From assembly GCA_035687145.1 (NCBI GenBank), contig DASRYM010000039.1:1219-65218 (forward strand): a DNA stretch of 64,000 bases, in the 5' to 3' direction. Made by a program: the position numbers and the translations under genes. The stretch's first letter is position 1. The number at the start of each line of letters is the position of its first letter. The notes beneath the pieces were generated by a model. That model was not told the DNA's origin and did no database searches. It was given only the letters and a program-made list of their open reading frames with translations. Positions 25,845-53,958 of the stretch are shown one piece after another. The stretch comes from Candidatus Zixiibacteriota bacterium. GTDB lineage: Bacteria > Chloroflexota > Limnocylindria > QHBO01.

Positions 25845-25865
25845 GTGTTCGGATCATTCGAACAC
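25845..25865. repeat. palindromic element copy (GTGTTCGGATCATTCGAACAC)
   Basis: Member of a dispersed 21-27 bp palindrome family, in the divergent FAH/LLM promoter region. Confidence 0.8.
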
Positions 25866-25902
25866 GTTCACCGCATCAGCCGGGCGGGCGACGCGCACCG
25901 AA

Positions 25903-25923
25903 GTGTTCCGATCATCCGAACAA
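25903..25923. repeat. palindromic element copy (GTGTTCCGATCATCCGAACAA)
   Basis: Second copy 58 bp downstream of the first, upstream of the LLM oxidoreductase. Confidence 0.8.
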
Positions 25924-25981
25924 TCTGGCCTGGGGTGGCCTGCCGGAGACCCGGAGCGGCCACCGCTAGAATCGGTTGAGC

Positions 25982-27004
25982 GTGAAACGGATCGGCTTCC
26001 TGTCGTTCGGCCACTGGTCGGACTCTCCGTATTCGAAGGTGCGCTCGGCGTCTGACGCCCTCCACCAGTCGATCGAGCTCGCGATCGCCGCCGAGGAGCT
26101 GGGCGCCGACGGCGCCTACTTCCGCGTCCACCACTTCGCGCAGCAGCTCGCCTCGCCGTTCCCCCTGCTGGCGGCCGTCGGCGCGCGGACCACGCGAATC
26201 GAGATCGGCACCGCCGTCATCGACATGCGGTACGAGAACCCGTTCTACATGGTGGAGGATGCGGGGGCGGCCGACATCATCGCCAACGGCCGCCTGCAGC
26301 TGGGGATCAGCCGCGGGTCGCCGGAGCAGGTCATCGACGGCTACCGCTACTTCGGCTACATCCCGGCCGAGGGCGAGGACGACGGCGACATGGCGCGCCG
26401 CCACGCGCAGGTCTTCCTGCAGCTCCTATCGGGTGAGGGTTTCGCCGAGCCGAATCCCAGGCCGATGTTTCCCAACCCGCCCGGCCTGCTGCGGCTGGAA
26501 CCGCACTCGCACGGCCTGCGCGACCGGATCTGGTGGGGCGCCGGCTCGAACGCGACCGCTGCCTGGGCGGCCACGCTGGGGATGAACATGATGACCTCGA
26601 CCCTGAAGTTCGACGAGTCGGGGCAGCCGCTGCACATCCAGCAGGCCGAGCAGATCGAGGCCTTCCGCGAAGCCTGGCGGGGGGCCGGCCACCACCGCGA
26701 GCCGCGGGTATCGGTCAGCCGCAGCATCTTCCCGCTGGTCGACGACCGCGACCGGCTCTACTTCGGGCACGGCCGGGAGGACACCGATCACATCGGCTAC
26801 CTGGACGAGAAGACGAGGGCCGTCTTCGGCCGCACCTACGCCGATGAGCCCGATCGGCTGGTCGAGCAGCTGCGCGCCGACACCGCCGTCGCGGCCGCCG
26901 ACACGCTGCTGCTGACCATCCCGAACCAGCTCGGCGTGGACTACAACGCCCACGTCATCGAGTCGGTGCTGCGCTACGTGGCGCCGGAGCTGGGCTGGCG
27001 CTAG
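25982..27004 (+). CDS. LLM class flavin-dependent (possibly F420-dependent) oxidoreductase
   Basis: Luciferase-like monooxygenase fold (VKRIGFLSFGHW...). GTG at 25982 or TTG at 25976. TAGAAT -10-like hexamer directly upstream. Confidence 0.75.
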   Translation: MKRIGFLSFGHWSDSPYSKVRSASDALHQSIELAIAAEELGADGAYFRVHHFAQQLASPFPLLAAVGARTTRIEIGTAVIDMRYENPFYMVEDAGAADIIANGRLQLGISRGSPEQVIDGYRYFGYIPAEGEDDGDMARRHAQVFLQLLSGEGFAEPNPRPMFPNPPGLLRLEPHSHGLRDRIWWGAGSNATAAWAATLGMNMMTSTLKFDESGQPLHIQQAEQIEAFREAWRGAGHHREPRVSVSRSIFPLVDDRDRLYFGHGREDTDHIGYLDEKTRAVFGRTYADEPDRLVEQLRADTAVAAADTLLLTIPNQLGVDYNAHVIESVLRYVAPELGWR

Positions 27005-28140
27005 AGGTTGCCGCGGCGCGCCTGCTCGCGCTCGATGGCCTCGAACAGCGCCTTGAAGTTGCCGACCCCGAAGCCGCGCGAGCCGTGGCGCTCGATGATC
27101 TCGAAGAAGAAGGTCGGGCGGTCCTGCACCGGCCTGGTGAAGATCTGGAGGAGGTAGCCCTCCTCGTCGCGATCGGCCTCGATGCCGAGCTCCTCGAGGA
27201 CGTCCATCGGCACACCGACGTCGCCGACCCGCTCGGGGAGCGACTCGTAGTAGGCGTGCGGCAGGCCCAGGAACTCCACTCCCCGTTCCCGCAGGGCGCG
27301 GACGGTCCCCACGATGTCCTCGGTGCGCAGCGCGATGTGCTGGGTGCCGGCGTCCAGGTAGTAGTCCAGGAACTCCTGGATCTGGCTCTTGCGCTTGCCG
27401 GTGGCGGGCTCGTTGATGGGGAACTTGATGCGGCCGTTCCCGTTCTGCATCACCTTGCTCATCAGCGCCGAGTACTCGGTGTGGATCACCTTGTCGTCGT
27501 AGTGGATGAGCTGGCTGAAGCCCAGGACGTTCCGGTAGAACTCGACAAACCGGTCCATGTCGCCGAGGGCGACGTTACCGACGCAGTGGTCGACCTCCAG
27601 GAGGCTCTGGCCACTCCCCGCCGGCCCGGGATTCCTGATGCGGTGATACCCCGGCGCGAACGTGCCGTGGTAGTCGCGCCGGTCGACGAAGCTGTGGATC
27701 ACCTCGCCGTAGGTGTGGATCGCGCTCTTGCGCAGCACGCCCTTCTGGCCCTCGATGGCCGTCGGTTCCAGGGCCGAGCGCGCCCCGCGTGACGTGGTCT
27801 CGCGCCACGCCGCCTCCACGTCGTCGACGGCGAAGGCGATGTCGTGCACCCCGTCTCCGTGCTTGTGGACGTGGGCCGCGATCTCGCTGTCGGGGGAGAG
27901 GGGCGCGGTGAACACGAATCGGATGTCGTTCTGCACCAGCACGTAGCTGGCGCGGTCACGCACGCCGGTCTCGAGCCCGGCGTAGGCCACCGGGGTGAAG
28001 CCCCACAGGGTGCGGTAGTAGGCCGCGGCCTGCTTGGCGTTCCCCACCCAGAACTCGATGTAGTCGATGCCCTTGAGCGGGAGGAAGTCCTCGTTCTGGC
28101 CCTCGGCGACCGCGTCGGGCTTGACGGCGATATCGGTCAT
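27001..28140 (-). CDS. hppD: 4-hydroxyphenylpyruvate dioxygenase
   Basis: Two VOC modules with the HPPD C-terminal signature FFFEIIERHGSRGFGVGNFKALFEAIEREQ. The ATG at 28140 overlaps the TGA of deoD (ATGA). Confidence 0.85.
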   Translation of the reverse strand: MTDIAVKPDAVAEGQNEDFLPLKGIDYIEFWVGNAKQAAAYYRTLWGFTPVAYAGLETGVRDRASYVLVQNDIRFVFTAPLSPDSEIAAHVHKHGDGVHDIAFAVDDVEAAWRETTSRGARSALEPTAIEGQKGVLRKSAIHTYGEVIHSFVDRRDYHGTFAPGYHRIRNPGPAGSGQSLLEVDHCVGNVALGDMDRFVEFYRNVLGFSQLIHYDDKVIHTEYSALMSKVMQNGNGRIKFPINEPATGKRKSQIQEFLDYYLDAGTQHIALRTEDIVGTVRALRERGVEFLGLPHAYYESLPERVGDVGVPMDVLEELGIEADRDEEGYLLQIFTRPVQDRPTFFFEIIERHGSRGFGVGNFKALFEAIEREQARRGNL

Positions 28141-28883
28141 GGTGCCCCGATTGTAGTGGCGTGCAGCACGACGTCGATCATCCGCTCCACCGCCGCGTTC
28201 AGATCGTCCTGCGAGAGGTACGTCTCCTCCGAGGTCGCTTCCTCGGAGAGCACGTCGGACACGACCAGCGCACATGCCGCCTGCGCCCCCTCTCGAGCGG
28301 CCAGGTAGAACAGTGCCGATGCCTCCATCTCGAAGGCCAGCACGCCGCGCGCGCGCCAGCGCGAGGCGTAGTCCGGATCGGTGTTGTAGAAGACGTCCAC
28401 CGAGGCCACCTGACCGACGTGAGCGGGCACCCCGGCCTCCTCTGCCGCGTGCACCAGGGCGTGGGTCAGCGCGAAGTCCGCTGTCGGCGCATAGGGCTCG
28501 CCGTGCAGGTACGTGCGCGTGGCTCCGTCGGTCGGCGCCGCCGAGGTGGCGATCACCAGGTCGCCGGTCTTCACGCCCGGGGCGATGCCGCCGCAGGTCC
28601 CCACCCGGATCAGCTGCTTCGCGCCGAGGCGCAGCAGCTCCTCGACCACGATCGACAGGCTCGGCGTGCCCATTCCCGTGGTCTGGACGCTGACCGGCCG
28701 ACCACCGACCGTGCCGGTGAACCCCAGCAGGCCCCGATGGGCGTTGACCTGGCGCGCACCTCCGTCGCTCCCGACGCCCCCATCGAACCGCTCGGCGATG
28801 CGTCGCGCCCGGTTGGGGTCGCCCGGAAGCATGACCAGAGGCGCGTAGTCACCGGGCTCGGCGTGCAGGTGGATCTGTGGCAT
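28137..28883 (-). CDS. deoD: purine nucleoside phosphorylase, DeoD type
   Basis: MPQIHLHAEPGDYAPLVMLPGDPNRARRIAE aligns with the E. coli DeoD N-terminus. Confidence 0.8.
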   Translation of the reverse strand: MPQIHLHAEPGDYAPLVMLPGDPNRARRIAERFDGGVGSDGGARQVNAHRGLLGFTGTVGGRPVSVQTTGMGTPSLSIVVEELLRLGAKQLIRVGTCGGIAPGVKTGDLVIATSAAPTDGATRTYLHGEPYAPTADFALTHALVHAAEEAGVPAHVGQVASVDVFYNTDPDYASRWRARGVLAFEMEASALFYLAAREGAQAACALVVSDVLSEEATSEETYLSQDDLNAAVERMIDVVLHATTIGAP

Positions 28884-28919
28884 GCGGCTAGGGTACGTCA
28901 CCCTGCGCCGGTCCACCTG

Positions 28920-29723
28920 TCACGGTGGCGACCGCGCGCCGCTCTCGATGGCGGCGATCAGCAGCGCCGCGCGACGCGCCCGCACCGGCCGCCCCTCTTC
29001 GATCGCGTACAGCAGCGCGGCGTGGAGCTCGTTGAGCCGCTCGTCGCCGGCGAGCACCCTTGCCCGCGCCGCCAGGTCCGGCTGCAGCGCGATGGTGGCC
29101 ATTCGGCAGGCGGCTGCCGCGACCGCGTTTCCGCTCAGTCGCGCGACCGCTCGGTGCACCTCCAGATCGGCCGTGGTGAAGACCTGCGCGTCCGGGGAGG
29201 CCCGAGCCCTGGACCGCTCACCGACGGCCAACCGCAGCTCACCCAGCTCTCGTTCGCGTCCACGCCGTCTGCCGCCGGCCGACTTGGCCGCGCTGGCCGC
29301 CACCACCGGCTCCACGGCGGTCCGCAGCTCCGCCACATCAGCCCGTCTCGCTCGTCGCTGCACGGCCCGCAGCGTGCGCGCTGCTCTGGGCCGCCGGGCG
29401 ACGAACGTTCCGCGGCCCTGGCGCACCTCCACCATTCCCTCTGCCTTCAGCTGAGCGACCGCTTCCCGCACGACACCCAACGACACGCCAAGCTGGCGCG
29501 CAACCTCGCGCATTGGCTCCAGGCGCTGCCCGGGCCGCACCTGGCCCAGCACGATCCGCCGCCGGATCGCGTCGGCCGTGCGATCCGCCAGCGTGCCGCG
29601 CTCGATCGGCGGCAGCGACAGCGGCTGGCGCCACCACGATGGCCGCCGCGCCCGCCGCTTCGCCTGCGCCGTCTGCTTCCTTCCCACCCCAAAGCCACCT
29701 GCGCTCTGAATTGTTCGGATCAT
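28920..29723 (-). CDS. GntR family (FadR/FCD-type) transcriptional regulator
   Basis: GntR HTH (EPMREVARQLGVSLGVVREAVAQLKAEGMV) plus a helical FCD-like C-terminus. The annotated start lies inside a copy of the palindromic element. The true start may be an internal GTG. Confidence 0.7.
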   Translation of the reverse strand: MIRTIQSAGGFGVGRKQTAQAKRRARRPSWWRQPLSLPPIERGTLADRTADAIRRRIVLGQVRPGQRLEPMREVARQLGVSLGVVREAVAQLKAEGMVEVRQGRGTFVARRPRAARTLRAVQRRARRADVAELRTAVEPVVAASAAKSAGGRRRGRERELGELRLAVGERSRARASPDAQVFTTADLEVHRAVARLSGNAVAAAACRMATIALQPDLAARARVLAGDERLNELHAALLYAIEEGRPVRARRAALLIAAIESGARSPP

Positions 29724-29731
29724 CCGAACAC
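29711..29731. repeat. palindromic element copy (TTGTTCGGATCATCCGAACAC)
   Basis: Overlaps the 5' end of the GntR regulator gene, in the divergent GntR/IMPase region. Confidence 0.8.
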
Positions 29732-29802
29732 TTGCAGGTGGCGCCTTACCGGGCGGTTACTCGGCACTTACCGGCAAGGGCGGCGGGTAGCATCCATCGG
29801 GC

Positions 29803-30633
29803 ATGGATCAATGGCAGGACGACCTGCGGTTCGCCGTCGAGGTAGCCAATCGGGCGGGAGAGCTGCTGAAGGCCAGCTATGGCCGTGTGGAGCGCGTGGA
29901 TCGCAAGAGCAAGCGGGACGTGGTGACCGAGGTGGACTACGCATCCGAGCGCCTGGTGCTCGACGCCATCCGGGAGGCGTACCCCGCCGACGAGATCCTG
30001 GCCGAAGAATCGGGCCACCACCAGCGGCGCGGAGCCAGGGGACGGCGGGATCGGAGCAGGCGGACCTGGGTGGTGGATCCACTGGATGGGACGGTGAACT
30101 ACGCGAATGCGATCCCGTACTTCTGCGTCAGCATTGGTCTGGTAGAGGACGGGAGGCCGGTGGTCGGCGTCGTCCTCGATCCTCTGCGGGGCGACTGCTT
30201 CGCGGCGGCGGCGGACGGGCCGGCGACGTTGAACGGTGTCCCGGTAACGACCAGCGACAAGGATGAGCTGGGGGATTTCGTGGTGAGCCTGGCGATCATC
30301 GGGCGCGACGGCACCGGACGCGAGCGGCGGATCGCGCGCCGGATCCGGATCCCGCGGCGCATGGGGAGCGCGGCGTTGTCGCTGGCGTACGTGGCGAACG
30401 GGCGCTTCGATGCCTTCGTACAGAACGGCGGGCTGTCGCTGTGGGACGTGGCCGCGGCGGGGCTCATCGCCGAGCGTGGCGGGGCAACGGTGAGCGACCT
30501 GTACGGCGGGGAGTGGTGGGATATGCGCCGGAAGAGCAGCACGGTCAGCGTGGTCGCCGCCCCGCAGCCCCACCACGGGGAGTTGCTGGAACTCCTCGCC
30601 TCAACCGGGGTCCGAGCCCGAACCCGCCGCTGA
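29803..30633 (+). CDS. inositol monophosphatase family protein
   Basis: WVVDPLDGT motif and IMPase fold. Confidence 0.8.
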   Translation: MDQWQDDLRFAVEVANRAGELLKASYGRVERVDRKSKRDVVTEVDYASERLVLDAIREAYPADEILAEESGHHQRRGARGRRDRSRRTWVVDPLDGTVNYANAIPYFCVSIGLVEDGRPVVGVVLDPLRGDCFAAAADGPATLNGVPVTTSDKDELGDFVVSLAIIGRDGTGRERRIARRIRIPRRMGSAALSLAYVANGRFDAFVQNGGLSLWDVAAAGLIAERGGATVSDLYGGEWWDMRRKSSTVSVVAAPQPHHGELLELLASTGVRARTRR

Positions 30634-30650: not shown

Positions 30651-31343
30651 TCAGGTGAGCTCGCCCGCCAGACGCAGGACGGTGGCGAACATCGCCAGGC
30701 TGCGGGCGGTCGCACCCCAGATGAGGTGCTCCCCATGCCGATACCCACCGGCCAGCCGCTGCCAGCCCGGCCCCGAGATTACCTCCTCGACCAGTCGGCC
30801 CTCTTCCAGCAGGAGGCGCGCCGGCAGCTCGATGATCGCCTCGACCTCCGGCTCGTGAGCGACCAGGTCGGGGGCCGACGGCAGCGCGCCGACGAAGGGC
30901 CGCAGCTCGAAGTTGCTGACCGGGATCCACGTGGCGTCGAGCTGCCCGAGGACGCGGACGTCGGCCGGCGGCACGCCGAGCTCCTCCCAGGCCTCGCGCA
31001 GGGCGGCGTCGGCTGGCGTCGGATCGGAGGGATCGATCGCGCCGCCGGGCAGCGAGACCTCCCCCGCATGCTCGCGCAGGTTGGCGTGGCGCACGGTCAG
31101 TGGGATGACGAGCTCGCGCGTGGCATCGGGGGTGACACGCGGGTAGAGGAGGAGCAGGGTCGCCGCGCGGCGGGCGGGCGGGAAGGCGGACCGCTCCGCC
31201 TGGCCCTCGGCCGGGCTCCCTTCGGCGCGCGGCACCGTCCGGGGCGTCACCCGCGGGTCGACGGCGATCGGTCGTGGCACCCGGCGCAGGGCCCGGGCGA
31301 TGGCCTCCTGCCAGTCGCCGTCAGCGCGTAAGATGCGCTCCAT
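30651..31343 (-). CDS. NUDIX hydrolase (CoA pyrophosphatase-like)
   Basis: Nudix box GEVSLPGGAIDPSDPTPADAALREAWEELGV. Confidence 0.75.
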   Translation of the reverse strand: MERILRADGDWQEAIARALRRVPRPIAVDPRVTPRTVPRAEGSPAEGQAERSAFPPARRAATLLLLYPRVTPDATRELVIPLTVRHANLREHAGEVSLPGGAIDPSDPTPADAALREAWEELGVPPADVRVLGQLDATWIPVSNFELRPFVGALPSAPDLVAHEPEVEAIIELPARLLLEEGRLVEEVISGPGWQRLAGGYRHGEHLIWGATARSLAMFATVLRLAGELT

Positions 31344-31803
31344 GACCTCCCGCCTTCCCGTCCTGGGCGACCGCGACGCGCGCGTTCGCGAGGCCCTCTA
31401 CCAGACCCGCATCCTGGTGAACCGCACGCCGCACTTCAGCACGTCCACCCGGCGCGAGGCAAATCGGGCGTTGGACATGCTCGAGGGCCAGCTGGGGCGC
31501 AACCAGGTGAATGTGGCGGAGGCGATCCGTGGCATCGAGCTGCTCAACCGGGCGCACAGCTCGCTCCTGTTCGGGCTGCTTCGCGATCCGGCCTTCTGCG
31601 ATCGGTTCGGCCCGGCGCTGCGGCGCCTGGGTCTGCGGGGGCTCGACCAGCGGCTGAGCGAGGTTCCGAGCTCGGTCATGGCGTTGCCGATCCCGGGGCC
31701 AACCGGCGGCCGCCGCCACCGCGACGAGCTGCCGCCCGAGGAGCGGACCGACGCCGAGGGCAACCCGCTGCCACCGCCGCCCGGCTGGTACGTCGGCTAC
31801 TGA
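31342..31803 (+). CDS. hypothetical protein
   Basis: MTSRLPVLGDRDARVREALYQTRILVN... The ATG (31342-31344) overlaps the CAT (31341-31343) of the divergent NUDIX start. Confidence 0.4.
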   Translation: MTSRLPVLGDRDARVREALYQTRILVNRTPHFSTSTRREANRALDMLEGQLGRNQVNVAEAIRGIELLNRAHSSLLFGLLRDPAFCDRFGPALRRLGLRGLDQRLSEVPSSVMALPIPGPTGGRRHRDELPPEERTDAEGNPLPPPPGWYVGY

Positions 31804-31811
31804 GCCACGAA

Positions 31812-31832
31812 GTGTTCGGATGATCCGAACAC
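31812..31832. repeat. palindromic element copy (perfect 10-bp arms GTGTTCGGAT G ATCCGAACAC)
   Basis: Exactly fills the gap between the convergent stops of the hypothetical gene (31803) and ecfA2 (31833). Could act as a bidirectional terminator. Confidence 0.8.
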
Positions 31833-32687
31833 TCACCGCGCGGGGCGGCCGCCGAGGGCGGTGAACAGCGTCTCGTCAGTGGGGGTGGGGGTCGCCAGGC
31901 CAAGGCGCTCGCCGAGGATGGCGGCCAGCGGCGGCTCGAGGTAGGTCGAGCGCAGGGTCGGCCAGGCATCGGGCGCGAAGACCGATGCCGGCGGGCCGTC
32001 GGCGACCACCCGGCCCTGGCGCAGGACGATGACCCGCGCGAAATTGCCGGCCACGAACTCCATGTCGTGGCTGATGGCGATGACCGTGCGGCCGGCCGCG
32101 GAGGCCTCGTCGATCACGTGGCGCACGGTCGCCACGCCGCGCGGGTCCTGGCCGGTGGTCGGCTCGTCCAGGACGAGCACGGGGGTGCGCATGGCCAGGA
32201 CCGATGCCAGGGCCAGCAGCTTGCGGCGCGAGCCGCCGAGGTCGTAGGGGTTGGTGCGGTCGTCGCCGGCGAGGCCCACGGTGGTCAGCGCCTGCTCGAC
32301 CACCGCCCGCAGCGCCGGTCCGCGCAGGCCCAGGTTGCGCGGCCCGAACTCGACCTCGGCGCGGACGGTGCCGGCGAAGATCTGGCGATCGGGGTCCTGG
32401 AAGACGAGGCCGACGACGCGCGCCAGGTCGGCCACGCTGCGGCGACGCGTGGGACGATCGTCGAAGCAGACCTCGCCGCCCGTCGGGCGCAGCAGGCCGT
32501 TGAGGTGGCGGACCAGCGTGGACTTGCCACTGCCGTTCTGCCCGACCACGGCGACTCGTTCGCCCGGTCCGATGGTGAGCGTCACGCCCTCCAGAGCGCG
32601 GACCGCGCCGTCCCGAGTTGGGTAGGTGTAGGTCACGCCATCGAGGTCGATGCGCGGGGGAGCCGCGGGGAGCGGGGCGGCGGTCAT
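31833..32687 (-). CDS. ecfA: ECF transporter ATPase component EcfA2
   Basis: Walker A GQNGSGKST, LSGGQ-like GGSRRKL, Walker B VLVLDEPT. Only the C-terminal 284 aa of the 854-aa ORF are genuine. ATGA overlap with ecfA1. Confidence 0.8.
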   Translation of the reverse strand: MTAAPLPAAPPRIDLDGVTYTYPTRDGAVRALEGVTLTIGPGERVAVVGQNGSGKSTLVRHLNGLLRPTGGEVCFDDRPTRRRSVADLARVVGLVFQDPDRQIFAGTVRAEVEFGPRNLGLRGPALRAVVEQALTTVGLAGDDRTNPYDLGGSRRKLLALASVLAMRTPVLVLDEPTTGQDPRGVATVRHVIDEASAAGRTVIAISHDMEFVAGNFARVIVLRQGRVVADGPPASVFAPDAWPTLRSTYLEPPLAAILGERLGLATPTPTDETLFTALGGRPAR

Positions 32688-33505
32688 CGGCCGAGGGCTC
32701 CCTCCAGGCGGGCGAGGGCATCCGGCGGGACCTGCGCGGACCGGGCGGCGCGCGGGATGCGGACCGCGGCCGGCGGCGCCACCCCGAGATCGACCAGCCG
32801 GGGATCGGCGAGCACCTCCGCCGTCGGCCCGCTCAGGGCCACGCGGCCGTGCTCCAGGACCACGACCCGCTGGCAGGTGCCGGCCAGCAGATCGGTCTTC
32901 TGCTCGGTGATCAGGATCGAGGTGCCGGTGCCGGCCAGGGCGGACAGAGCATCGGCCACCAGCTGCGTGCCGGCCGGGTCGAGCTGGGCCGTCGGCTCGT
33001 CGAGCACCAGGTGGCGCGGCCGCATGGCCAGGAGGCCGGCGATCGCCACCAGCTGCTGCTGCCCACCGGAGAGGCGGGATGGATCGCGGTCGGCCAGGGC
33101 GTCGATGCGCAACGTGGACAGCGCCCCCCACGTGCGTGCCAGCACCTCGGGGAGTGGAAGGCCGAGGTTCATCGGCCCGAAGGCGACCTCCTCGAAGACC
33201 GTGGTGGCCACCCCGGAAAGCTGGGTGTGCGGGTTCTGGAAGCCGATGGCCACCTCGCTCGCCAGCCGGTGCATCGGCCAGTCGTCGACGTGCTGCCCAT
33301 CCAGCCGGACGTGGCCCCGGATGCGCCCGCCCACCGCCCGCGGGGCGAGGCCAGAGACGACCAGGCACAGCGTGGTCTTGCCCGCCTCCGAGGCGCCGGC
33401 CACGCCGACCACCTCGCCGTCGGCCAGCTCCAGGTCGACGTCGAGCAGCGACGGCTTGCGCGCGCCGGCGTACCGGTAGCCGACGCCCTCCAGGCGCAGG
33501 CCCAC
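32684..33505 (-). CDS. ecfA: ECF transporter ATPase component EcfA1
   Basis: ABC ATPase motifs (GASEAGKTT, LSGGQQQLVAIA, LVLDEPTAQLD). GTG start. Confidence 0.8.
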   Translation of the reverse strand: MGLRLEGVGYRYAGARKPSLLDVDLELADGEVVGVAGASEAGKTTLCLVVSGLAPRAVGGRIRGHVRLDGQHVDDWPMHRLASEVAIGFQNPHTQLSGVATTVFEEVAFGPMNLGLPLPEVLARTWGALSTLRIDALADRDPSRLSGGQQQLVAIAGLLAMRPRHLVLDEPTAQLDPAGTQLVADALSALAGTGTSILITEQKTDLLAGTCQRVVVLEHGRVALSGPTAEVLADPRLVDLGVAPPAAVRIPRAARSAQVPPDALARLEGALGR

Positions 33506-34348
33506 CTACAGCGCTCCGAGCACGCGCGCCACGATCAGGGCCACCAGCCCCGCGACCAGCGCCCAGCGCAGGAGGGCCTGCGCCGGCGAGTCGGGCGGCG
33601 TCCACAGGAGAGTGCGGCGCCCCGGGCGCGAGAAGGCGCGTGCCTCCAGGGCCAGGGTGCGCTCCTCGACCTCGGCGATCGAGCCGAGGATGACCGGCCC
33701 CACGATCGGCACGATGCCGCGCGCCCGGCGCCAGACGCTGCCCTCGGTGTCCAGGCCGCGCGCCCGCTGGGCGTCGGTGATCTGGGCGGCGCGCTCGACC
33801 ATGGCCGGCACGGTCTGGACCGATGCGTTGGCCACGAACGCGACCCGCGGGCTCACCCCGCGCCGCTCGAGGTCGACGACCAGGTCGGCGGGGCGAGTGG
33901 TCAGGTAGAAGAGGGTGATCGCCCCGCTGATGGCCATGATCCGCACCAGGATCTCCAGGGCGAAGGCCAGCCCCTCGGCGGTGGCCACCACCGGGCCGAT
34001 GCGCAGCAGCTCCGTCTGCCCGCCGGGGAAGAAGAAGACGTTGACCAGCACGGCGCTGATGGCGATGGGCAATGCCAGCAGCAACGCGGTACGCGCCAGG
34101 CGGCCGAGGACCGAGGCCGCCACGGCCGGCACCACGACCAGGACCGCCAGCAGCAGCAGCGGGCCGATCAGGCCGCCGATGACCACCGCGGCGATGGCGG
34201 TGGTGGTGGCCAGGGTGGCCTTGGTCAGCGGGTTGAGGCGGTGATACGCGGTCGGACCGGGGCGCCCGATCGATTCGGGCAGTCCCCGGTCCTCGGCGCT
34301 CGGCGTGGCCGCGGCCGGGGTGCTGGTCAGGCCGGCGCCCCCCGCCAC
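33506..34348 (-). CDS. ecfT: ECF transporter transmembrane component EcfT (CbiQ family)
   Basis: Polytopic membrane protein with AYHRLNPLTK near the N-terminus, typical of EcfT. Start uncertain (overlaps S by 22 nt). Confidence 0.7.
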   Translation of the reverse strand: MAGGAGLTSTPAAATPSAEDRGLPESIGRPGPTAYHRLNPLTKATLATTTAIAAVVIGGLIGPLLLLAVLVVVPAVAASVLGRLARTALLLALPIAISAVLVNVFFFPGGQTELLRIGPVVATAEGLAFALEILVRIMAISGAITLFYLTTRPADLVVDLERRGVSPRVAFVANASVQTVPAMVERAAQITDAQRARGLDTEGSVWRRARGIVPIVGPVILGSIAEVEERTLALEARAFSRPGRRTLLWTPPDSPAQALLRWALVAGLVALIVARVLGAL

Positions 34349-35394
34349 TCGCCCTCGTCCGCGGTCCCCGGCTCCTCGGCCTCCAGGAGCAGCTCACCCT
34401 GCGGGAAGCGCGCCTTCGTGCGACGCGCCATGGCGTTCAGCACGAGGTAGACCACGAAGAAGGTGACCAGCTTGTCGACCGGGTCGGAGAGCAGGCCCTG
34501 CTGGAAGGTGGCAGCCTGGATGTCGGAGCCGGCCTGGCGGAAGGCGGCCACCAGGAAGTCGGTCCCCGAGCCGGTGACGCCGCTGAACAGATTGGCGCTG
34601 ATCGGAGCGCTGATCAGGGCGGCGATGACCCCGGTGATGACGCCGGCCACGGTGACGTAGGCCACGGTCAGGTCGCGTCGCACGAAGAGCAGCAGCAGGA
34701 AGCCGATGATGAACGCGGCGAACAGCGCGGCGATCAGCCAGCCGAGGACGACGAACAGCGGGTCGGTGGTATCGGGATTGAAGAACTCGAAGGTCTCGGT
34801 GTAGAAGCGGGTGTAGGCGTAGAGGGCCAGGCCGGCCACCACCGCCAGCGCCAGCACCGCCCCGATGGCCAGCTGCCCGGCCGGGCGGTCGGGTCGCGGG
34901 CGCAACCACCCGGCGCGGGCGAAGAGGCCGGCCAGCAGGCCGATGACCGCCGCCACGATCGCGAACGGGGCGGCCACCGTGCCCTGGAAGGGCGGCGGGA
35001 TGACGTACTGCCACAGGATGTTGGCCAGGAAACCGGTCAGGGCGCCGGGGATCGGCCCCGCCAGCGCGCCGACCAGGATGGTGCCGATGCTGTCGAGGTA
35101 GATCGGGATCTTCAGCGCGTTGGCCACCGCCGCGCCCAGGATGATGTTGATGGCGATGGCGATCGGCATCAGGACCAGGGTGCGCATGTCGAACTGCGCC
35201 GCGATGGAGCCGAAGCCGCCGGTCTGCAGGTACTCCACCAGCGCATAGGCGATGAAAGCGGCCAGCAGCCCGAGGGCGGCGACCAGCGCCCAGGAGTCGC
35301 CTGCGGCATCGGTCGAGAAGTCGCCGATGACCACGATCCCCACGAAGGCCACGACCACGAATGCCGCCAGGGCGGCGACCCAGCGCACGATCAC
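34327..35394 (-). CDS. ECF transporter substrate-specific (S) component, long form
   Basis: Highly hydrophobic 355 aa directly upstream of ecfT/A1/A2. The GTG start overlaps the TGA of the nucleoside hydrolase (GTGA). Confidence 0.55.
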   Translation of the reverse strand: MIVRWVAALAAFVVVAFVGIVVIGDFSTDAAGDSWALVAALGLLAAFIAYALVEYLQTGGFGSIAAQFDMRTLVLMPIAIAINIILGAAVANALKIPIYLDSIGTILVGALAGPIPGALTGFLANILWQYVIPPPFQGTVAAPFAIVAAVIGLLAGLFARAGWLRPRPDRPAGQLAIGAVLALAVVAGLALYAYTRFYTETFEFFNPDTTDPLFVVLGWLIAALFAAFIIGFLLLLFVRRDLTVAYVTVAGVITGVIAALISAPISANLFSGVTGSGTDFLVAAFRQAGSDIQAATFQQGLLSDPVDKLVTFFVVYLVLNAMARRTKARFPQGELLLEAEEPGTADEGEWRGAPA

Positions 35395-36419
35395 GTTCGG
35401 AATCCTCCTTCGGCTATCCCGGCCGCGGCCTGCGGCCCGGCGACGGCGCGGCCCAGCCGCTCGAGCAGCTCGGCCTTCATCCCCTCGGCGTCGATGGCGG
35501 TGACGACCTCCACCTCCGGGCGTTGGTCATCGGCGGCGCGGTACAGGCTGCCGGCAACGCGCGGGTCGGAGCTGGTGTCGCAGGCGAGGCGCACGCGCAC
35601 CGTCTCGGTCACCAGGTCGGGCCGCAGCAGGGCACCGATCAGGGTGACCGGGTCGTGGAGGTAGGCGCCGTCGATGCCATCGGCCTCGCGATGGAACGCC
35701 ACGTAGTAGCGGACGGCGTCACGCACCACGCCGGCCAGGTGCGTCTCCGGCAGGGAGCGGAGGTCGTCCATGGTGAACACCACGTCCTGCGTGGCGTCCA
35801 GCGGGAAGATGCGGTCCAGCACCCCCTCCTTCAGGCACGTCTCGGCGGCCTCAGGGTCGACGCAGGCGTTCCACTCCCCGGTCTCGGTGGTGTTGCCCCG
35901 CTCCTCGAGGGTGCCGCCCATCCAGATCACCTCGCGCGTGCCGCCGGCCAGGTCCACGCCACCCATCGCCGCCGAGGCCAGGTTGGTGAGCGGGCCAAGG
36001 GCCAGCAGGGTCATCTCCCCGGGGTGGCGCTTGACGTGCGCGCCCAGGTAGCGGGGCGCGGGGAGGGCGGTGTACTCGGTGGTGCCCAGCGAGCGGTCCT
36101 CGCCCCGCAGCTCGACGAAGCCGGTACCGGTGGGGCCGTGGGTGTCCGGGGCGGTCCGCAGCCGCCGCTGGAGCGGCCGCGCGGCGCCGATGCTGACCGG
36201 CACGTCGGAGCGGCCCATCATCGAGAGCACCTTCCCGGTGTTGCGCGCCACGTGGTGGATCTCGACGTTGCCGGCCACGCAGGTCACGCCCCGCAGGTTG
36301 AGCTCCGGGGCGCTGGCGGCGATCAGCAGCGCGATCATGTCGTCGATCCCGGTGTCGACGTCCATGATCAGCGGGCGCGGGCCTGACCGGGCCTCGTCGG
36401 ACGGCTCCACGTCCTCCAT
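35391..36419 (-). CDS. inosine-uridine preferring nucleoside hydrolase family protein
   Basis: MDVDTGIDDMIALL aspartate cluster typical of IU-nucleoside hydrolases. Confidence 0.8.
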   Translation of the reverse strand: MEDVEPSDEARSGPRPLIMDVDTGIDDMIALLIAASAPELNLRGVTCVAGNVEIHHVARNTGKVLSMMGRSDVPVSIGAARPLQRRLRTAPDTHGPTGTGFVELRGEDRSLGTTEYTALPAPRYLGAHVKRHPGEMTLLALGPLTNLASAAMGGVDLAGGTREVIWMGGTLEERGNTTETGEWNACVDPEAAETCLKEGVLDRIFPLDATQDVVFTMDDLRSLPETHLAGVVRDAVRYYVAFHREADGIDGAYLHDPVTLIGALLRPDLVTETVRVRLACDTSSDPRVAGSLYRAADDQRPEVEVVTAIDAEGMKAELLERLGRAVAGPQAAAGIAEGGFRT

Positions 36420-36440
36420 CCTAGCGTGCCCGCCCAGCGA

Positions 36441-37351
36441 TCAGCGACCGGCCGGCGGCCAACCGCCGGCCCGCCCCACCTTGCTGCCCACCTCCGGCTT
36501 GCCGAGCGCCTTCGCCGCGAAACGCGCGGCGGCCAGCAGCCGGTCCAGGTCCACGCCGTGACGCAGGCCCTGGCGGTCGAGCAGGTAGACGAGGTCCTCG
36601 GTGGCCAGGTTCCCGGCGGCGCCCGGGGCGTACGGCGAGCCACCGGTGCCTCCGGCCGCCGCGTCGAAGGCGGCCACACCCACGTCGAGGGCGGCCATCA
36701 CGTTGGCCAGCGCCGTCCCGCGCGTGTCGTGGAGGTGCAGCGCCACCACCTCCGGACCGACTCCAGCGGCGCCCAGCGCGTCGAGCACGCGCCGCACGTC
36801 GACCGGCGCCGCGACCCCGACGGTGTCCGAGATGGCCAGCTCGTCCACGCCCATGGCCAGCAGCCGCTCGCAGACGCTCACCACTGCCCGCGGGTCGACC
36901 TCCCCCTCGTAGGGGCAGCCGAAGGCGGTGCTCACGTAGGCGCGCAGCCACCAGCCCCGTCTCCGGGCCTCCTCGGCGATCGGCGTGAACTCGGCCAGCG
37001 ACTCGTCGATCCCCATCCCGATGTTGTGGCGCACGTACGACTCGGTGGCCGCGGTGAACAGGCAGATCGCATCGACTTCGGCCGCGATCGCGCGCTCCAG
37101 CCCGCGCGCGTTCGGCACCAGCACCGGGTAGCGGACGCCCGGGCGCCGTTCGAGGCGCGCCATGAGCCCGTCGGCATCGGCCAGGGCGGGGATGGCGCGC
37201 GGCGAGACGAAGGAGGTGGCCTCGATCTCGCGCAGGCCGGCATCGGCCAGCAGGCCGATCAGGGCCAGCTTGTCGTCGGTCGACAGGACCTGGCGCTCCG
37301 CCTGCAGGCCGTCGCGCGGCGCGACCTCGTAGATGCGCACGTCCAGCGCGG

Positions 37352-37355
<4 letters not shown>
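36441..37355 (-). CDS. hydroxymethylglutaryl-CoA lyase
   Basis: YEVAPRDGLQ, HLHDTRG and GGSPYAPGAAGN HMGL motifs. ATGA overlap with the MCC alpha stop. Confidence 0.85.
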
Positions 37356-39448
<2,093 letters not shown>

Positions 39449-39627
39449 GTCGCGATTGTCGCACCGGTGGGCTCCGGCGTTACGGCCGGCAGCGAAGCGG
39501 GCCGGGTTGCGGCGGCGGCGTATCATCCTCACTGCCCCGTCGCGCTGATCGTTGTCCCACCGACAGCGTCTGGCAGCGCGCATACCCGAGCGTGCGCATG
39601 GTCATCTGAATCGCGGGAGGAAGATGC

Positions 39628-42081: not shown

Positions 42082-42882
42082 TCAGTCCGGGGCGCGCTCC
42101 ACCGACCAGGACGCGCGGCGCTTGTCGAGGAAGGCGGTCAGGCCCTCCTGGCCCTCGGCGCTCACCCGCTGGCGGGCGGCGACGCGCACCGCGTGGGCCG
42201 CGAACTTCCCGGACGGCAGGTCCCGCCAGACGCGGATCAGGAGCTTGGCCTGGCGCACCGCGTTCGGGCCCGCGGCCAGCAGCTCGCCGAGCAGGGCATC
42301 GACCCGCCCGTCCAGCGCGGTCTCGTCCGGCAGCACCTCGTGGACCAGGCCGATGCGCAGCGCGCGCTCCGCGCCGAACCGCTCCCCGGAGAGATACAAC
42401 GCCCGCGCCTGCCCCTCCCCGATGCGGGGCAGCACGAACGGGCTGATCACCGCCGGCAGGATGCCGAGCTTGACCTCGGTGAAGCCGAAGCGGGCATCGG
42501 CGGTGGCCAGCACCACGTCCGACACGGCGCAGAGCGCCATGCCGCCGCCCAGCGCCGCGCCCTGGACGCGGGCGATCACCGGCGCGGGGCACTCGTCGAT
42601 GGCCCGCAGCATGGCCTGCAGCCGCGCCGCGTCGGCCTCGTTCTCCTCCAGCGTGAGGTGCAGGGCAGCCCGCTGCCAGTTGATGTCGGCCCCGGCCGAG
42701 AAGACCGGTCCCTCGCCGGCCAGCACCACCGCGCGCATCCGCTGCGCCGGCTCGCGGGCCAGGGCGGTGAAGGCGTCGTGCAGCTCCCCGATGAGGGCGG
42801 CGTTGAACGCGTTGCGCACCTCGGGGCGGGCGAGCGTGACCCTCGTGACGGGACCGTCACGCTCGACGCGCAGGGCCGCCAT
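42082..42882 (-). CDS. enoyl-CoA hydratase/isomerase family protein (possibly methylglutaconyl-CoA hydratase)
   Basis: Crotonase fold with the AALGGGMAL oxyanion region. Start overlaps the upstream gene's stop by 1 nt. Confidence 0.8.
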   Translation of the reverse strand: MAALRVERDGPVTRVTLARPEVRNAFNAALIGELHDAFTALAREPAQRMRAVVLAGEGPVFSAGADINWQRAALHLTLEENEADAARLQAMLRAIDECPAPVIARVQGAALGGGMALCAVSDVVLATADARFGFTEVKLGILPAVISPFVLPRIGEGQARALYLSGERFGAERALRIGLVHEVLPDETALDGRVDALLGELLAAGPNAVRQAKLLIRVWRDLPSGKFAAHAVRVAARQRVSAEGQEGLTAFLDKRRASWSVERAPD

Positions 42883-44546: not shown

Positions 44547-46145
44547 TCACATCCGGAAGACGCCGAACCGCGACTCGGGGATCGGCGCGTTCAGGGCGGC
44601 GCTGATGCCCATGGCCAGCACCCGCCGGGTGTCGAGCGGGTCGATGACGCCGTCGTCCCACAGCCGAGCGGTCGAGTAGTAGGGCGAGCCCTCGCGCTCG
44701 TACTTCTCCAGGATGGGGGCCTCGAAGGCGTCGCGCTCCGCATCGGTCCGGAAGCCTCCGCGGACGGTGGACAGCACCCGCGCCGCCTGCTGGCCGCCCA
44801 TCACCGAGATCCGGGCGTTCGGCCACATCCACAGGAAGCGCGGTGCGTAGGCGCGGCCGGCCATGCCGTAGTTCCCGGCGCCGAAGCTGCCGCCGATGAT
44901 CACCGTGAACTTGGGCACGTCGGTGGTGGCCACCGCGGTGACCAGCTTGGCGCCGTCCTTGGCGATGCCCCCGGCCTCGTACTCGCGGCCGACCATGAAG
45001 CCGGTGATGTTCTGCAGGAAGACCAGCGGAATGCGGCGCTGGCTGGCCAGCTCGATGAAGTGGGCCCCCTTCAGGCTGGAGGACGAGAACAGGATCCCGT
45101 TGTTGGCCAGGATCCCGACCGGGTAGCCCTCGATGCGGGCGAAGCCGCAGACCAGCGTCTCGCCGTAGCGCTCCTTGAACTCGTGGAACTCCGATCCGTC
45201 GACCAGGCGGGCGATCACCTCGCGCACGTCGTAGCCCTGGCGCGGGTCGTCCGGGATGACCCCGTACAGCTCCTCCGGGTTGACCGATGGCTCCCGCGGC
45301 TCAGCGCGCTCCCACGGCGGATCGGGCTTGCGCCGGTGCAGGCTGGCCACGATCTGGCGCCCGATGGCGATGGCGTGCTCGTCGTCCAGCGCGTAGTGGT
45401 CGGCCACGCCCGACTGGACGGTGTGCACCTCGGCCCCGCCCAGCTCCTCGGCCGACACCTCCTCGCCGGTGGCCGCCTTCACCAGCGGCGGGCCGCCCAG
45501 GAAGATGGTGCCGGTGCCGCGCACGATGACGGTCTCGTCGCTCATGGCCGGCACGTAGGCTCCGCCCGCGGTGGAGCTGCCCATGACCAGCGCGATCTGC
45601 GGGATGCCGGCCGCCGACAGGCGGGCCTGGTTGTAGAAGATCCGCCCGAAGTGGTCGCGGTCGGGGAAGACCTCGTCCTGCAGCGGCAGGTAGGCCCCGC
45701 CCGAGTCGACCAGGTAGATGCACGGCAGCCGGTTCTGCTCGGCGATCTCCTGGGCGCGCAGGTGCTTCTTGACGGTCATCGGGTAGTAGGTGCCGCCCTT
45801 GACCGTGGCGTCGTTGGCCACGATCAGGCACTCGGTGCCGGACACCATGCCGATGCCGGTGACGATGCCGGCGCCGGGCGCCTCGTCGCCGTACAGCCCG
45901 TTGGCGGCCAGCGCGCTCAGCTCGAGGAAGGCGCTCCCCGTGTCCAGCAGCAGCTCGATGCGCTCGCGGACCAGCAGCTTGTTGCGCTCCCGGTGGCGGG
46001 CGATGGCCCGCTCGTCACCCGCGGCCCCGCGTTCGGCGACCGCGCGCGTGCGCTCGCGCAGGTCGTCCACCAGCGCGCGCATGGCAGCGGCGTTGGCCTC
46101 GAAGCTTGGCGAGGAGGGGTCCAGGGTGGAACGCAGCACGGCCAT
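44547..46145 (-). CDS. methylcrotonyl-CoA / acyl-CoA carboxylase carboxyltransferase (beta) subunit
   Basis: 532 aa from MAVLRST (ATG 46145) with carboxyltransferase N and C domains. A CATAAT -10-like hexamer lies 6 nt upstream, suggesting a leaderless mRNA. Confidence 0.85.
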
Positions 46146-46197
46146 CGGGAGCCGATTATGGCTGTCCCGGGCACCCACACGAGTGACGGCGGGCAAC

Positions 46198-46218
46198 GTG
46201 TTCGGAACATCGGAACAC
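46198..46218. repeat. palindromic element variant copy (GTGTTCGGAACATCGGAACAC)
   Basis: Upstream of the MCC beta start. Inner arms altered relative to the consensus. Confidence 0.75.
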
Positions 46219-46241
46219 GTCCGCGGCTGGCGAACCACGAA

Positions 46242-46262
46242 GTGTTCGGAACATCGGAACAC
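46242..46262. repeat. palindromic element variant copy (identical 21-mer GTGTTCGGAACATCGGAACAC), preceded by the conserved CACGAA flank
   Basis: Second identical copy 44 bp from the first, upstream of MCC beta. Confidence 0.75.
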
Positions 46263-51718: not shown

Positions 51719-51744
51719 CCGAGCCGGCTGGCTATGCTCGGCGC

Positions 51745-52197: not shown

Positions 52198-52931
52198 CCC
52201 GTCACCGCCCGGACCACGAGATCGGCGGCCTGGCCGCGGTGCTGGCCCACCCCGACGACGAAAGCTTCGGCTGCGCGGGGGCGCTGGCCCTGGCCCACGA
52301 CGCGGGGCGCAACGTGCGCCTGCTGCTGGCCACCCGCGGTGAGGCGGGCAGCCCGCCGGACGGGATGGACGCGGCCGACTTCGCCCAGGTGCGCGAGGAG
52401 GAGCTGCGCTGCGCCGCCGCGAAGATCGGGCTGACCGAGATCACCGTGCTGGAGGGCTATCCCGATGGCGGCGTGGCCGACATGCCCTTCAACCAGCTGG
52501 TCGACGAGATCGCCCTGTGGCTGGCCGACCGGCGCCCGGACGCGGTGATCACCTTCGGCGCCCACGGCGTCACCGGCCACCCGGACCACGTGGTCGTCGG
52601 CTCGGCCACGCGCTGGGCGGTCGAGCGGCTGGCCGAGACCGGGCAGGCGCCGCACGCGGTGTACGTCATCGCCCCGGTTTTCGGCGGCGGGGCCCGGCGC
52701 TACGACCTATCCCCGGAGGAGGGGGCGGCCACGCACCGGATCGACATCACGTCGGTGGCCGGTCGCAAGATCGCCGCGCTGGCCTGCCACGCCTCGCAGG
52801 CTGACGCCGTCCAGGAGGCGCAGGACCTGCAGGCCGTCCTGGACCGCGACGGGGTGCTGTACGAGGGCTACACCCGGGTCCGGCCCCCCGTCCCGGCGCC
52901 GCATCCCAAGTTCGACGAGCGCCTGGTCTGA
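52194..52931 (+). CDS. PIG-L/LmbE family N-acetylglucosaminyl deacetylase
   Basis: AHPDDESFG zinc-binding motif. GTG start preceded by GAGGAGGA. Confidence 0.8.
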   Translation: MTRHRPDHEIGGLAAVLAHPDDESFGCAGALALAHDAGRNVRLLLATRGEAGSPPDGMDAADFAQVREEELRCAAAKIGLTEITVLEGYPDGGVADMPFNQLVDEIALWLADRRPDAVITFGAHGVTGHPDHVVVGSATRWAVERLAETGQAPHAVYVIAPVFGGGARRYDLSPEEGAATHRIDITSVAGRKIAALACHASQADAVQEAQDLQAVLDRDGVLYEGYTRVRPPVPAPHPKFDERLV

Positions 52932-53000
52932 CCGCCGCGCCCCGGCGGTCGGGGACGACCACGACCACCCCGCGGCACATCCTTGGTATTCTGGTCGGGT

Positions 53001-53291
53001 ATGGCAATTGACCAGGACCTCGCCCGCGTCGACGAGGTCATGACCGCGCTCTACGACATCCACGACCCGGAGATCGGGATGAGCATCGTGGATCTCGACC
53101 TGATCAAGCACGTCGAGATCGGGAAGGACGGCGGGCCCACCGAGATCAAGATGGTGCTCACCACCCCGTTCTGCCCGTGGGCCGGCGAGCTGATCCAGAC
53201 CGTCAAGCAGCGGGCCGAGGAGGTGGTCGGTCCGCCGGTCAAGGTCACCCTGCTCGCCGATCGCTGGGAGCCGCCACCGGGCCTCTTCTAG
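53001..53291 (+). CDS. metal-sulfur cluster assembly factor (DUF59/MIP18/SufT-like)
   Basis: VMTALYDIHDPEIGMSIVDLDLI and TTPFCPWAGEL motifs. Confidence 0.7.
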   Translation: MAIDQDLARVDEVMTALYDIHDPEIGMSIVDLDLIKHVEIGKDGGPTEIKMVLTTPFCPWAGELIQTVKQRAEEVVGPPVKVTLLADRWEPPPGLF

Positions 53292-53339
53292 CGGCCGCAA
53301 CCGCCACCGGTGCCCGGCCGAGGCCGTACCATCGGTCCG

Positions 53340-53906
53340 GTGAAGATCTACACCCGCAAGGGGGACGCCGGCACCACCGGCCTGCTGTACGGCGGCGAGC
53401 GCATCAGCAAGGCGGGCCTGCGGACGGATGCCTACGGCACCACCGACGAGGCCGTTTCGGCCCTGGGCCTGGCACGCGCCGCCCTGGGCGTCATCACCGA
53501 TCGCGCCGAGGCCCGCTTGGCCTCCCTCACGGTGCGCCTGCAGCGCGAGCTGTTCGTGGTCGGTGCCGAGCTGGCGACCCACGCCGAGCGTCGCGATCGT
53601 CTGACGCCGGGCACCACCCTGGTCACCGCCGAGATGGTCGAGGCCCTCGAGCGGGAGATCGACGACCTGGAGGCCGGCATGACCATGCCGACCGAGTTCG
53701 TGATTCCCGGTGAGTCGCTGGCCGGCGCCGCCTACGACCTGGCTCGCACCACCGTCCGCCGCGCCGAGCGGCGCGCCGTGGCGCTGGCCGAGGCCGGCGG
53801 CCTGCCCGACTCACAGGTCCTGGCCTACCTGAACCGCCTCGCCGACCTGCTGTGGGTCATGGCCCGTGTCGCCGATGGCGGCTACGTCCCGGTCCGCCAG
53901 CGCTGA
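53340..53906 (+). CDS. cob(I)yrinic acid a,c-diamide adenosyltransferase, PduO type
   Basis: VKIYTRKGDAGTTGLL N-terminus typical of PduO-type ATR. GTG start. Confidence 0.8.
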   Translation: MKIYTRKGDAGTTGLLYGGERISKAGLRTDAYGTTDEAVSALGLARAALGVITDRAEARLASLTVRLQRELFVVGAELATHAERRDRLTPGTTLVTAEMVEALEREIDDLEAGMTMPTEFVIPGESLAGAAYDLARTTVRRAERRAVALAEAGGLPDSQVLAYLNRLADLLWVMARVADGGYVPVRQR

Positions 53907-53937
53907 GGTCGGGCGGGCGTCCGGCGTGCCGCCACGA

Positions 53938-53958
53938 GCGTTCCGATGATCGGAACAC
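53938..53958. repeat. palindromic element variant copy (GCGTTCCGATGATCGGAACAC)
   Basis: In the intergenic region between the PduO-type ATR and ALDH genes. CC/GG-swapped inner arms but still palindromic. Confidence 0.75.

Follow-up and report, generated by a model that had tools for sequence, protein, structure and literature searches.

Regulators of the FadR subfamily of GntR proteins typically control the catabolism of oxidised or amino-acid-derived substrates, and their motifs are A/T-rich palindromes of TKGT and ACMA boxes in which GT and AC lie 2–3 nt apart. Extra boxes 7–12 nt from the centre are frequent, and there are exceptions with additional symmetry (PMC4494728). SdhR-type sites with additional symmetry and the (GGTATA)x3 operators of NanR are described as having more than one box pair and as being bound by more than one dimer (PMC4494728, PMC8012715). 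Here we describe a family of 25-bp palindromes from Candidatus Limnocylindria, a class of Chloroflexota. Eight copies lie in the 64-kb window, by which we mean the whole stretch of DNA analysed (64,000 nt of contig DASRYM010000039.1, forward-strand positions 1,219–65,218). The sequence comparisons below indicate that the palindromes are very probably operators bound by some transcription factor, and it is likely that this factor is a local GntR regulator of the FadR subfamily (with an FCD domain) encoded at 28920–29687.

The genes beside the palindromes belong largely to pathways that have known regulators elsewhere. In Proteobacteria, leucine and tyrosine catabolism are controlled by LiuR, a member of the MerR family, and by HmgR/TyrR. 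Their targets overlap those proposed here: MCC alpha and beta and HMG-CoA lyase are liu genes, and HPPD (4-hydroxyphenylpyruvate dioxygenase) and FAH (fumarylacetoacetate hydrolase) belong to the homogentisate pathway. The family of the regulator is different, and a single motif here spans both pathways. In contrast to MerR/LiuR-type sites, the palindromes do not sit between the -35 and -10 elements of a long-spacer promoter; they lie 34–94 nt upstream of -10-like boxes. A literature search found no FadR-subfamily member described from the class Limnocylindria, and no paper on hppD control by a GntR protein, on how Limnocylindria regulate their genes, or on the helix-turn-helix (HTH)–MCC alpha fusion described below. 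The motif strings, searched literally in papers, gave only unrelated primer matches.

A discrete palindrome family of low copy number

A scan of the window for GTGTTC-N9-GAACAC with at most one mismatch returned exactly eight matches, starting at 25845, 25903, 29711, 31812, 37741, 46198, 46242 and 53938. These are the eight copies listed in a preliminary description of this DNA, which is borne out on this point: shuffling predicts 0.01 matches, and none of 100 shuffles reached eight. A position weight matrix (PWM) made from the eight copies scores them at 36–48 bits; elsewhere in the 64 kb no position exceeds 0.7 bits, a gap of about 35 bits. Reading of 19 related loci gave 32 sites. Their consensus, from the PWM of all sites, is AASTGTTCnGRTsAYCnGAACASTT, a dyad-symmetric palindrome of 25 bp in which 82% of cells are complementary, set in a window of 70–74% G+C. 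With the family-wide PWM, each of the 32 sites reaches 29 bits or more; in ~290 kb of related DNA the interval from 8 to 29 bits is empty, and the best shuffle reaches 13 bits. The palindromes form a discrete, highly significant set.

The symmetry is looser than was first thought. The outer arms had been called invariant, and half of the eight copies depart from them by a single change (TTGTTC twice, GAACAA and GCGTTC). The inner arms had been said to co-vary, and the S/S pair (positions 7 and 15 of the 21-mer) is complementary in only four of the eight window copies.

The host had been taken for an actinobacterium, which was mistaken, as the relatives are Chloroflexota (Ca. Limnocylindria) metagenome-assembled genomes (MAGs). 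The closest homologues of GntR, of the N-terminus of the HTH–MCC alpha fusion and of the MCC alpha C-terminus are all proteins from Candidatus Limnocylindria or Chloroflexota MAGs, and several orthologous copies of the motif were found only in Ca. Limnocylindria MAGs. A strict pattern, TGTTCSGAWSATCSGAACA, which matches six of the eight window copies, was searched in 596 Gb of species-representative genomes and found 51 loci. Of these, 44 are outside Limnocylindria, one place each, which is about the 35–70 expected by chance from the information content of the pattern. The remaining seven come from four Limnocylindria MAGs, the only ones with sites at places orthologous to those of the window; the whole-MAG counts are 1, 2, 1 and 5, and they describe these four related MAGs, which are possibly incomplete, rather than the full genome of the window organism. 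The MAG with five places (SMAG_U7036) holds ~5–6 copies in total; further ones precede a DUF72 gene, separate dxs from a tlyA-like gene, or are found on another contig. Because the matches outside Limnocylindria are near chance and the Limnocylindria MAGs hold one to five, the element is lineage-specific and of low copy number, and the genome-wide count proposed in the preliminary description, made in these related MAGs, does not yield numbers like those of repetitive extragenic palindromes (REPs). A metagenome scan with the GntR protein found relatives of 32–40% identity, which were without the motif.

Key copies recur at orthologous places even between genomes with proteins of only 47–86% identity. 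These include the divergent region between gntR and the IMPase gene (L003, L008, L011), the FAH/HPPD region (L011, L008) and the tandem pair before MCC beta (L014, at 2540 and 2591). The positions other than gntR turn over between lineages; this holds for the region between FAH and the luciferase-like monooxygenase (LLM) gene, the MCC beta tandem pair, the aldehyde dehydrogenase site, the MCC alpha coding sequence and the place after the ECF-transporter stop codon.

The gntR promoter site and the predicted regulator

The regulator gene (28920–29687, minus strand) is the first gene of gntR-pnp-hppD and is followed by a PNP_UDP_1-family gene (28137–28916, minus) and by HPPD (27001 to ~28140, minus), both presumed core targets. 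Pfam places the open reading frame (28920–29723) in the GntR family (PF00392, 6.7e-18) with an FCD domain (PF07729, 1e-10). Its PDB relatives are of the FadR/PdhR/GntR type, and P0103 is an identical protein of 255 aa. Contigs of up to 1.87 Mb hold orthologues of 47–70% identity and share the same synteny: enoyl-CoA hydratase (ECH), HTH–MCC alpha, HMG-CoA lyase, IU-nucleoside hydrolase, ECF transporter, NUDIX and IMPase, then the divergent GntR, PNP, HPPD and FAH genes. The order gntR-pnp-hppD(-fah) is kept in L061–L067.

A variant of the palindrome is found directly upstream of gntR in all 12 loci in which the region can be read (the window, L003, L008, L011 and L061–L068), even though GntR identity among them falls to 47%. 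In the nine loci with a placeable start codon, the 19-bp core ends 11–24 nt before the gntR start, with the ribosome-binding site in between. In the window this is copy 3 (29711..29731), in the gntR/IMPase divergent region, whose core ends 24 nt upstream of the gntR GTG (29687), with AGGTGG as the ribosome-binding site. In L061–L066 the gntR site is the sole one or one of two in 10–20 kb of syntenic DNA; in L062, L064 and L065 the second is upstream of FAH, as is a site in L011. Judged by this comparison, the position upstream of gntR is the ancestral and most conserved site. Among the regulators examined, only GntR has the palindrome at its own promoter. The preliminary description had offered an operator for the local GntR as its alternative, and the conservation in 12 of 12 genomes supports it.

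The palindrome can be set beside the operators of FadR, PdhR, LldR, DgoR and HypR. As in these systems, a regulator with a GntR winged helix-turn-helix and an FCD domain is encoded beside the site, which is dyad-symmetric, odd in length and located at the regulator's own promoter. The catabolic targets for amino-acid-derived acids and the extra boxes around a central core are shared as well. The differences are that TGTTC and GAACA stand 9 nt apart (13 nt from TGT to ACA) around a GRT-s-AYC centre, an arrangement that lacks the canonical core, and that the site is G+C-rich, not A/T-rich. The present GntR also differs from the subfamily in its extra basic N-terminal arm and TWWxRP motif. With SdhR-type and NanR operators the site shares the long GntR-family operator type with more than one pair of recognition boxes, whereas the sequences are unrelated. 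The best-supported reading of these sequences is a FadR-type operator family, with the canonical core absent.

Two features near the gntR site merit mention on their own. The Arg/Lys-rich N-terminal arm of GntR (residues 1–30, window 29600–29687) and a conserved TWW(S/R)(R/Q)P motif precede the winged helix (P0103–P0121). The PDB relatives do not align to this arm; their alignments begin at residues 23–51. Upstream of gntR, three TTAC boxes (29746, 29757 and 29768; nTAAS on the reverse strand) recur at 11-bp spacing over 29746..29771, 14 nt from copy 3. This module is kept in all 12 genomes, 12–14 nt from the gntR palindrome, and does not accompany other copies. It may belong to the promoter or may be a further operator, conceivably that of GntR itself.

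The sequences show the sites, with their statistics, their conservation and their tie to gntR; from these we infer binding by GntR, the sign of regulation and the effector, and the most likely mode is that of a ligand-released FadR-type repressor. Dimers of GntR would bind the 25-bp site, and two dimers per site are possible because the inner GRT-s-AYC core and the outer TGTTC/GAACA boxes are both conserved. At the gntR promoter, the location 11–24 nt upstream of the start implies that the bound site would overlap the core promoter or the transcription start and lead to autorepression of gntR-pnp-hppD; an operator placed between any possible promoter and the ribosome-binding site would fit autorepression. 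As in other FCD regulators, release would come from a small carboxylate ligand from tyrosine or leucine breakdown. The regulon would have grown from ancestral sites at gntR and FAH, and it would now also cover LLM, IMPase, MCC beta with its tandem pair, aldehyde dehydrogenase and, through two bracketing sites, the hmgL-ECF unit. The bracketing sites, one in the MCC alpha coding sequence and the other just after the last stop codon, could work as roadblocks or as an operator within the unit.

Sites at other genes

Gene assignments in the window are from Pfam, and promoter positions rest on -10-like boxes that are conserved between genomes; a sigma-70 promoter scan found nothing at the sites. 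Boxes reading TAGACT, TAGAAT, TAGCAT, CATAAT and GACAAT lie 6–12 nt before the starts of FAH, LLM, IMPase, MCC beta and HTH–MCC alpha. These TAnnnT-type boxes (25805–25810, 25967–25972, 29788–29793, 46155–46160 and 39452–39457) come without a ribosome-binding site. Since the boxes are conserved and so close to the starts, and a ribosome-binding site is missing, they suggest leaderless or nearly leaderless mRNAs, seemingly common in the lineage. Six of the eight window copies are within 150 bp upstream of start codons, beside -10-like boxes of this kind.

Two copies share the divergent region between FAH (24780–25796, minus) and LLM (25976–27004, plus). Copy 1, GTGTTCGGATCATTCGAACAC (25845..25865), is 34 nt upstream of the FAH box TAGACT, its centre at about -57 from the predicted FAH transcription start, and FAH is its presumed target. 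Copy 2, GTGTTCCGATCATCCGAACAA (25903..25923), is 43 nt upstream of the LLM box TAGAAT (25967–25972); its presumed target is LLM, and its centre is 58 bp from that of copy 1. L062, L064, L065 and L066 keep the TAGACT box ahead of the FAH ATG, and in L062 and L065 the FAH site stops 19 and 12 nt short of the -10 box, overlapping the -35 region. Across the divergent region from gntR, the IMPase-family gene (29803–30633, plus) has its -10-like TAGCAT (29788–29793) 9 nt before the ATG, and the box is conserved in four genomes as TAGGATC/TAGCATC.

The gene for MCC beta (the carboxyltransferase, 44547–46145, minus; its ATG at 46145 is placed by conservation) is preceded by a tandem pair and is its presumed target. 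The proximal copy 6 (46198..46218) is 37 nt upstream of the box CATAAT (46160–46155, minus), and the centre of the distal copy 7 (46242..46262) is 44 bp further on. Over the tandem pairs found, the spacing varies (58, 44, 51 and 49 bp). Because copies 6 and 7 carry the same two departures from the consensus, one of them appears to have been derived from the other. Both read GTGT-TCGGAACA-TCGGAACA-C and are at once a perfect 8-bp direct tandem repeat and an imperfect palindrome.

Copy 8, GCGTTCCGATGATCGGAACAC (53938..53958), is between the stop codon of a PduO-type adenosyltransferase (53906) and aldehyde dehydrogenase (54115–55560, plus), ~84 nt upstream of a TAGAAT box (54042–54047). The dehydrogenase gene has an in-frame ATG at 54115 with GAGG as its ribosome-binding site. 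A second inverted repeat, CGGAATC-N6-GATTCCG (53989–54008), stands between copy 8 and this box and may be a site for another regulator.

Copies 4 and 5 bracket the unit of HMG-CoA lyase (36441–37355), IU-nucleoside hydrolase (35391–36419) and the ECF transporter operon (S, T, A and A'; 31833–35394), all on the minus strand (31833..37355). Copy 4 (31812..31832) directly follows the stop codon of the last ECF-transporter ATPase (31833, minus) and faces a convergent hypothetical gene (31300–31803); a NUDIX gene is at 30651–31343 (minus). Copy 5 (37741..37761) is inside the coding sequence of the HTH_17–MCC alpha fusion (37352–39448, minus), where it encodes SVRMIGTI, ~390 bp upstream of the HMG-CoA lyase start. 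The contexts given in the preliminary description hold for the FAH/LLM and GntR/IMPase divergent regions, the pair before MCC beta, the convergent junction and the MCC alpha copy, and the exception is its claim that copy 4 exactly fills the convergent gap from stop to stop. That gap (31804–31832) is 29 nt long, and the 21-mer abuts only the ECF ATPase stop.

Several neighbouring genes round out the picture. ECH (42082–42882, minus) and HTH–MCC alpha are separated in the window by a gene for an M36 fungalysin-type metallopeptidase (39628–42018, plus); they are adjacent in L058–L062 and L065, and L063 has an M36 peptidase next to MCC alpha. A 408-aa gene (19288–20514, minus) is probably homogentisate 1,2-dioxygenase, judged by its size and by neighbours that match genes of L062 and L066 which hit HgmA_N. 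It has no palindrome upstream, and for that reason the middle step of the tyrosine pathway appears to lie outside the regulon in the window.

Competing explanations and meaning for the lineage

Both bracketing copies look like lineage-specific insertions. Copy 4 has no counterpart at the matching convergent junction of L011 and L003, whose genes there touch or overlap, and it looks like an insertion of ~30 nt; L068 (274–292) carries it right after the same stop codon, and the GntR of L068 is, at 70% identity, the nearest one found. In L067 a site falls instead between the genes of the two ECF ATPases. Copy 5 is part of a 57-nt in-frame insertion (19 aa, ...SQGVGERAQSVRMIGTISA..., 37711–37767, minus) that is absent from 15 homologues and falls in the linker that joins the BT and biotinyl domains of MCC alpha. 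The palindrome is surrounded there by a direct repeat of 7 nt, CGCGCAG, which is the only candidate for a target-site duplication and is non-significant on its own. L067 has its own intragenic site (462–480) ~60 nt further along the same linker, in another reading frame and encoding another peptide. Codons ending in A or T make up five of eight in the window site and five of seven in that of L067, against a background of 7–10% (P ~1e-4 each; for the window, P ~9e-5 against 7%). Because of the independent L067 site and the rare A/T-ending codons in both, the intragenic sites appear to be under DNA-level selection that keeps a site in the MCC alpha linker. The window stretch that aligns to the L067 intragenic site, downstream, matches it at 11 of 21 positions and may be a decayed older site.

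The preliminary description preferred to see in the palindromes a mobile element like a REP or a miniature inverted-repeat transposable element (MITE), spreading by transposition or copy-and-paste, with some copies perhaps co-opted as operators. The absence of copy 4 at the L011 and L003 junction, the insertion with its CGCGCAG repeat around copy 5 and the differing site repertoires of close relatives all agree with this, as does a CCACGA(A) flank common to three window copies. That flank is asymmetric, occurs on the left (31806–31811, 46236–46241 and 53932–53937) beyond the palindromic AA...TT extension, and could be chance or a trace of copy-from-copy origin. REPs and bacterial interspersed mosaic elements (BIMEs) with their RAYT transposases, and Rickettsia palindromic elements (RPEs), likewise are short palindromes with some copies between convergent genes, and RPEs have the in-frame intragenic copy in common. 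Where they differ is telling. The copy number here is low (5, 2, 1 and 1 per related MAG, against tens to hundreds for REP/BIME), and the flanks of the window copies share nothing beyond ~25–27 bp, the only high-scoring alignments being from neighbouring tandem copies; there is none of the internal sequence within terminal inverted repeats that marks a MITE. No transposase or RAYT gene was found by Pfam among the open reading frames of the 64-kb window. The stem is not maintained, with copy 5 folding at -6.7 kcal/mol (z = -0.7) and the variable pairs unpaired in 35–42% of sites, and most copies are upstream of genes. The gntR, MCC beta and ECF-end copies are orthologous across genomes, and the independently placed L067 linker site points to selection, not to random insertion. 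A mobile element is very improbable on this evidence. The comparison of orthologous loci, suggested at the outset as a check on mobility, came out divided, with copies 4 and 5 in lineage-specific insertions and the key copies at orthologous positions. These observations also leave some room for a hybrid reading, in which an autoregulated GntR operator became a self-spreading module whose 25-bp copies are pasted into new places, with GntR acting there as roadblock or insulator. We regard this as unlikely; if true, the regulon would grow by insertion of ready-made sites, not by point mutation, and operators would be tolerated and selected inside coding sequences.

A function in RNA, with the palindromes acting as hairpins, terminators or mRNA stabilisers, is scarcely credible. 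The perfect copies do fold stably (-14 to -16 kcal/mol, z ~-4), and copy 4 stands at an operon end. The copy in MCC alpha folds no better than its shuffles, however, stems are broken in half of the copies, and three variable pairs account for the unpaired fraction given above (31 sites in 19 loci). No copy is followed by a U tract, and a terminator scan found none at the sites, which disposes of the terminator role suggested earlier. Most copies are upstream of promoters, in untranscribed or divergent regions. Rfam, run on the whole window, gave only a tRNA (4416–4489) and nothing at the sites. A modest excess of covariation over shuffles across the 31 sites is no argument for a hairpin, because sequences that are related, or that are bound by a homodimer, would show it in any case.

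If the sites are operators, the protein that binds them has to be named, and several points weigh against GntR. The conserved adjacency to gntR is circumstantial; a regulator from elsewhere in the genome could use the site to act on the divergent IMPase gene, and the motif departs from the canonical FadR-subfamily core. Copies 4 and 5 are where no promoter is expected and are insertion-like relative to close relatives. A co-variation of the GntR recognition helix (SLG/SLP/SLS) with the inner motif was seemingly confirmed by P0112, P0115 and P0121 and is contradicted by L068, which pairs the window-type helix SLGVVRE with another motif variant, TGTTCAGATCAYCTGAACA. Finally, the window sites at FAH, LLM, MCC beta, IMPase and aldehyde dehydrogenase are 34–94 nt upstream of -10-like boxes, with centres at about -57 to -107, which looks more like activator geometry than simple promoter occlusion; activation or cooperative binding may operate there. 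The operator evidence holds whichever protein binds, and a different dyad-symmetric regulator encoded outside the window, for which the gntR site would be a means to control gntR-pnp-hppD or IMPase, would account for the missing GT-N(2-3)-AC core and the failed co-variation test and would leave the three phased TTAC boxes as GntR's possible own operator. Such a regulator has a small chance of being the answer, since no other is conserved in synteny with the sites, the placement 11–24 nt ahead of the gntR start, seen in 12 of 12 genomes, is a classical mark of autoregulation, and the gntR promoter is often the sole site in distant relatives.

The other local candidate named in the preliminary description was the HTH_17 domain (excisionase/MerR-like) fused to MCC alpha, which as a trigger enzyme would bind the palindromes and control leucine and tyrosine catabolism. 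The fusion is genuine and keeps the reading frame, more than 80 Chloroflexota proteins share it, and there are sites upstream of its partner MCC beta and within its own gene. Yet its recognition region, TVRTVQRW.A.GRL.A.RVGGR, is invariant in seven genomes among which the variable positions of the palindrome differ, and L058–L060 have no site at all in the cluster from MCC beta to MCC alpha. In L061–L063 and L065 the sites are only at gntR and FAH, with none at the MCC genes, and the fusion's own conserved promoter never carries the palindrome. HTH–MCC alpha is probably not the binder and ranks well below GntR, its case being very improbable. At least four genomes keep the promoter just mentioned, TGCGACAATCGCGAC(A/G)TG, in which the GACAAT box stands 7 nt ahead of the ATG, and the fusion, seen also in L058–L063 and L065, may be a self-regulating DNA-binding trigger enzyme in its own right. 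A Crp-family gene (21459–22187) was also considered and rejected: it is not syntenic, being replaced by MarR or by nothing in relatives, and an odd-length site with 9-nt box spacing is unlike the 5-6-5 CRP-type site.

As a kind of thing, a family of transcription-factor operators is ordinary, and the interest of this one is moderate; it comes from a lineage that is uncultured, an operator that is non-canonical, and copies placed within a gene and behind a stop codon. The GntR reading would be the first regulon prediction for Candidatus Limnocylindria, an uncultured class of Chloroflexota that is abundant in soil and freshwater. One predicted FadR-type regulator would link tyrosine catabolism (HPPD, FAH) with that of leucine (MCC, HMG-CoA lyase) through an operator that is unusually long and non-canonical. 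The sites turn over fast around what would be a fixed autoregulatory core, with repeated placement in the same linker of a coding sequence.

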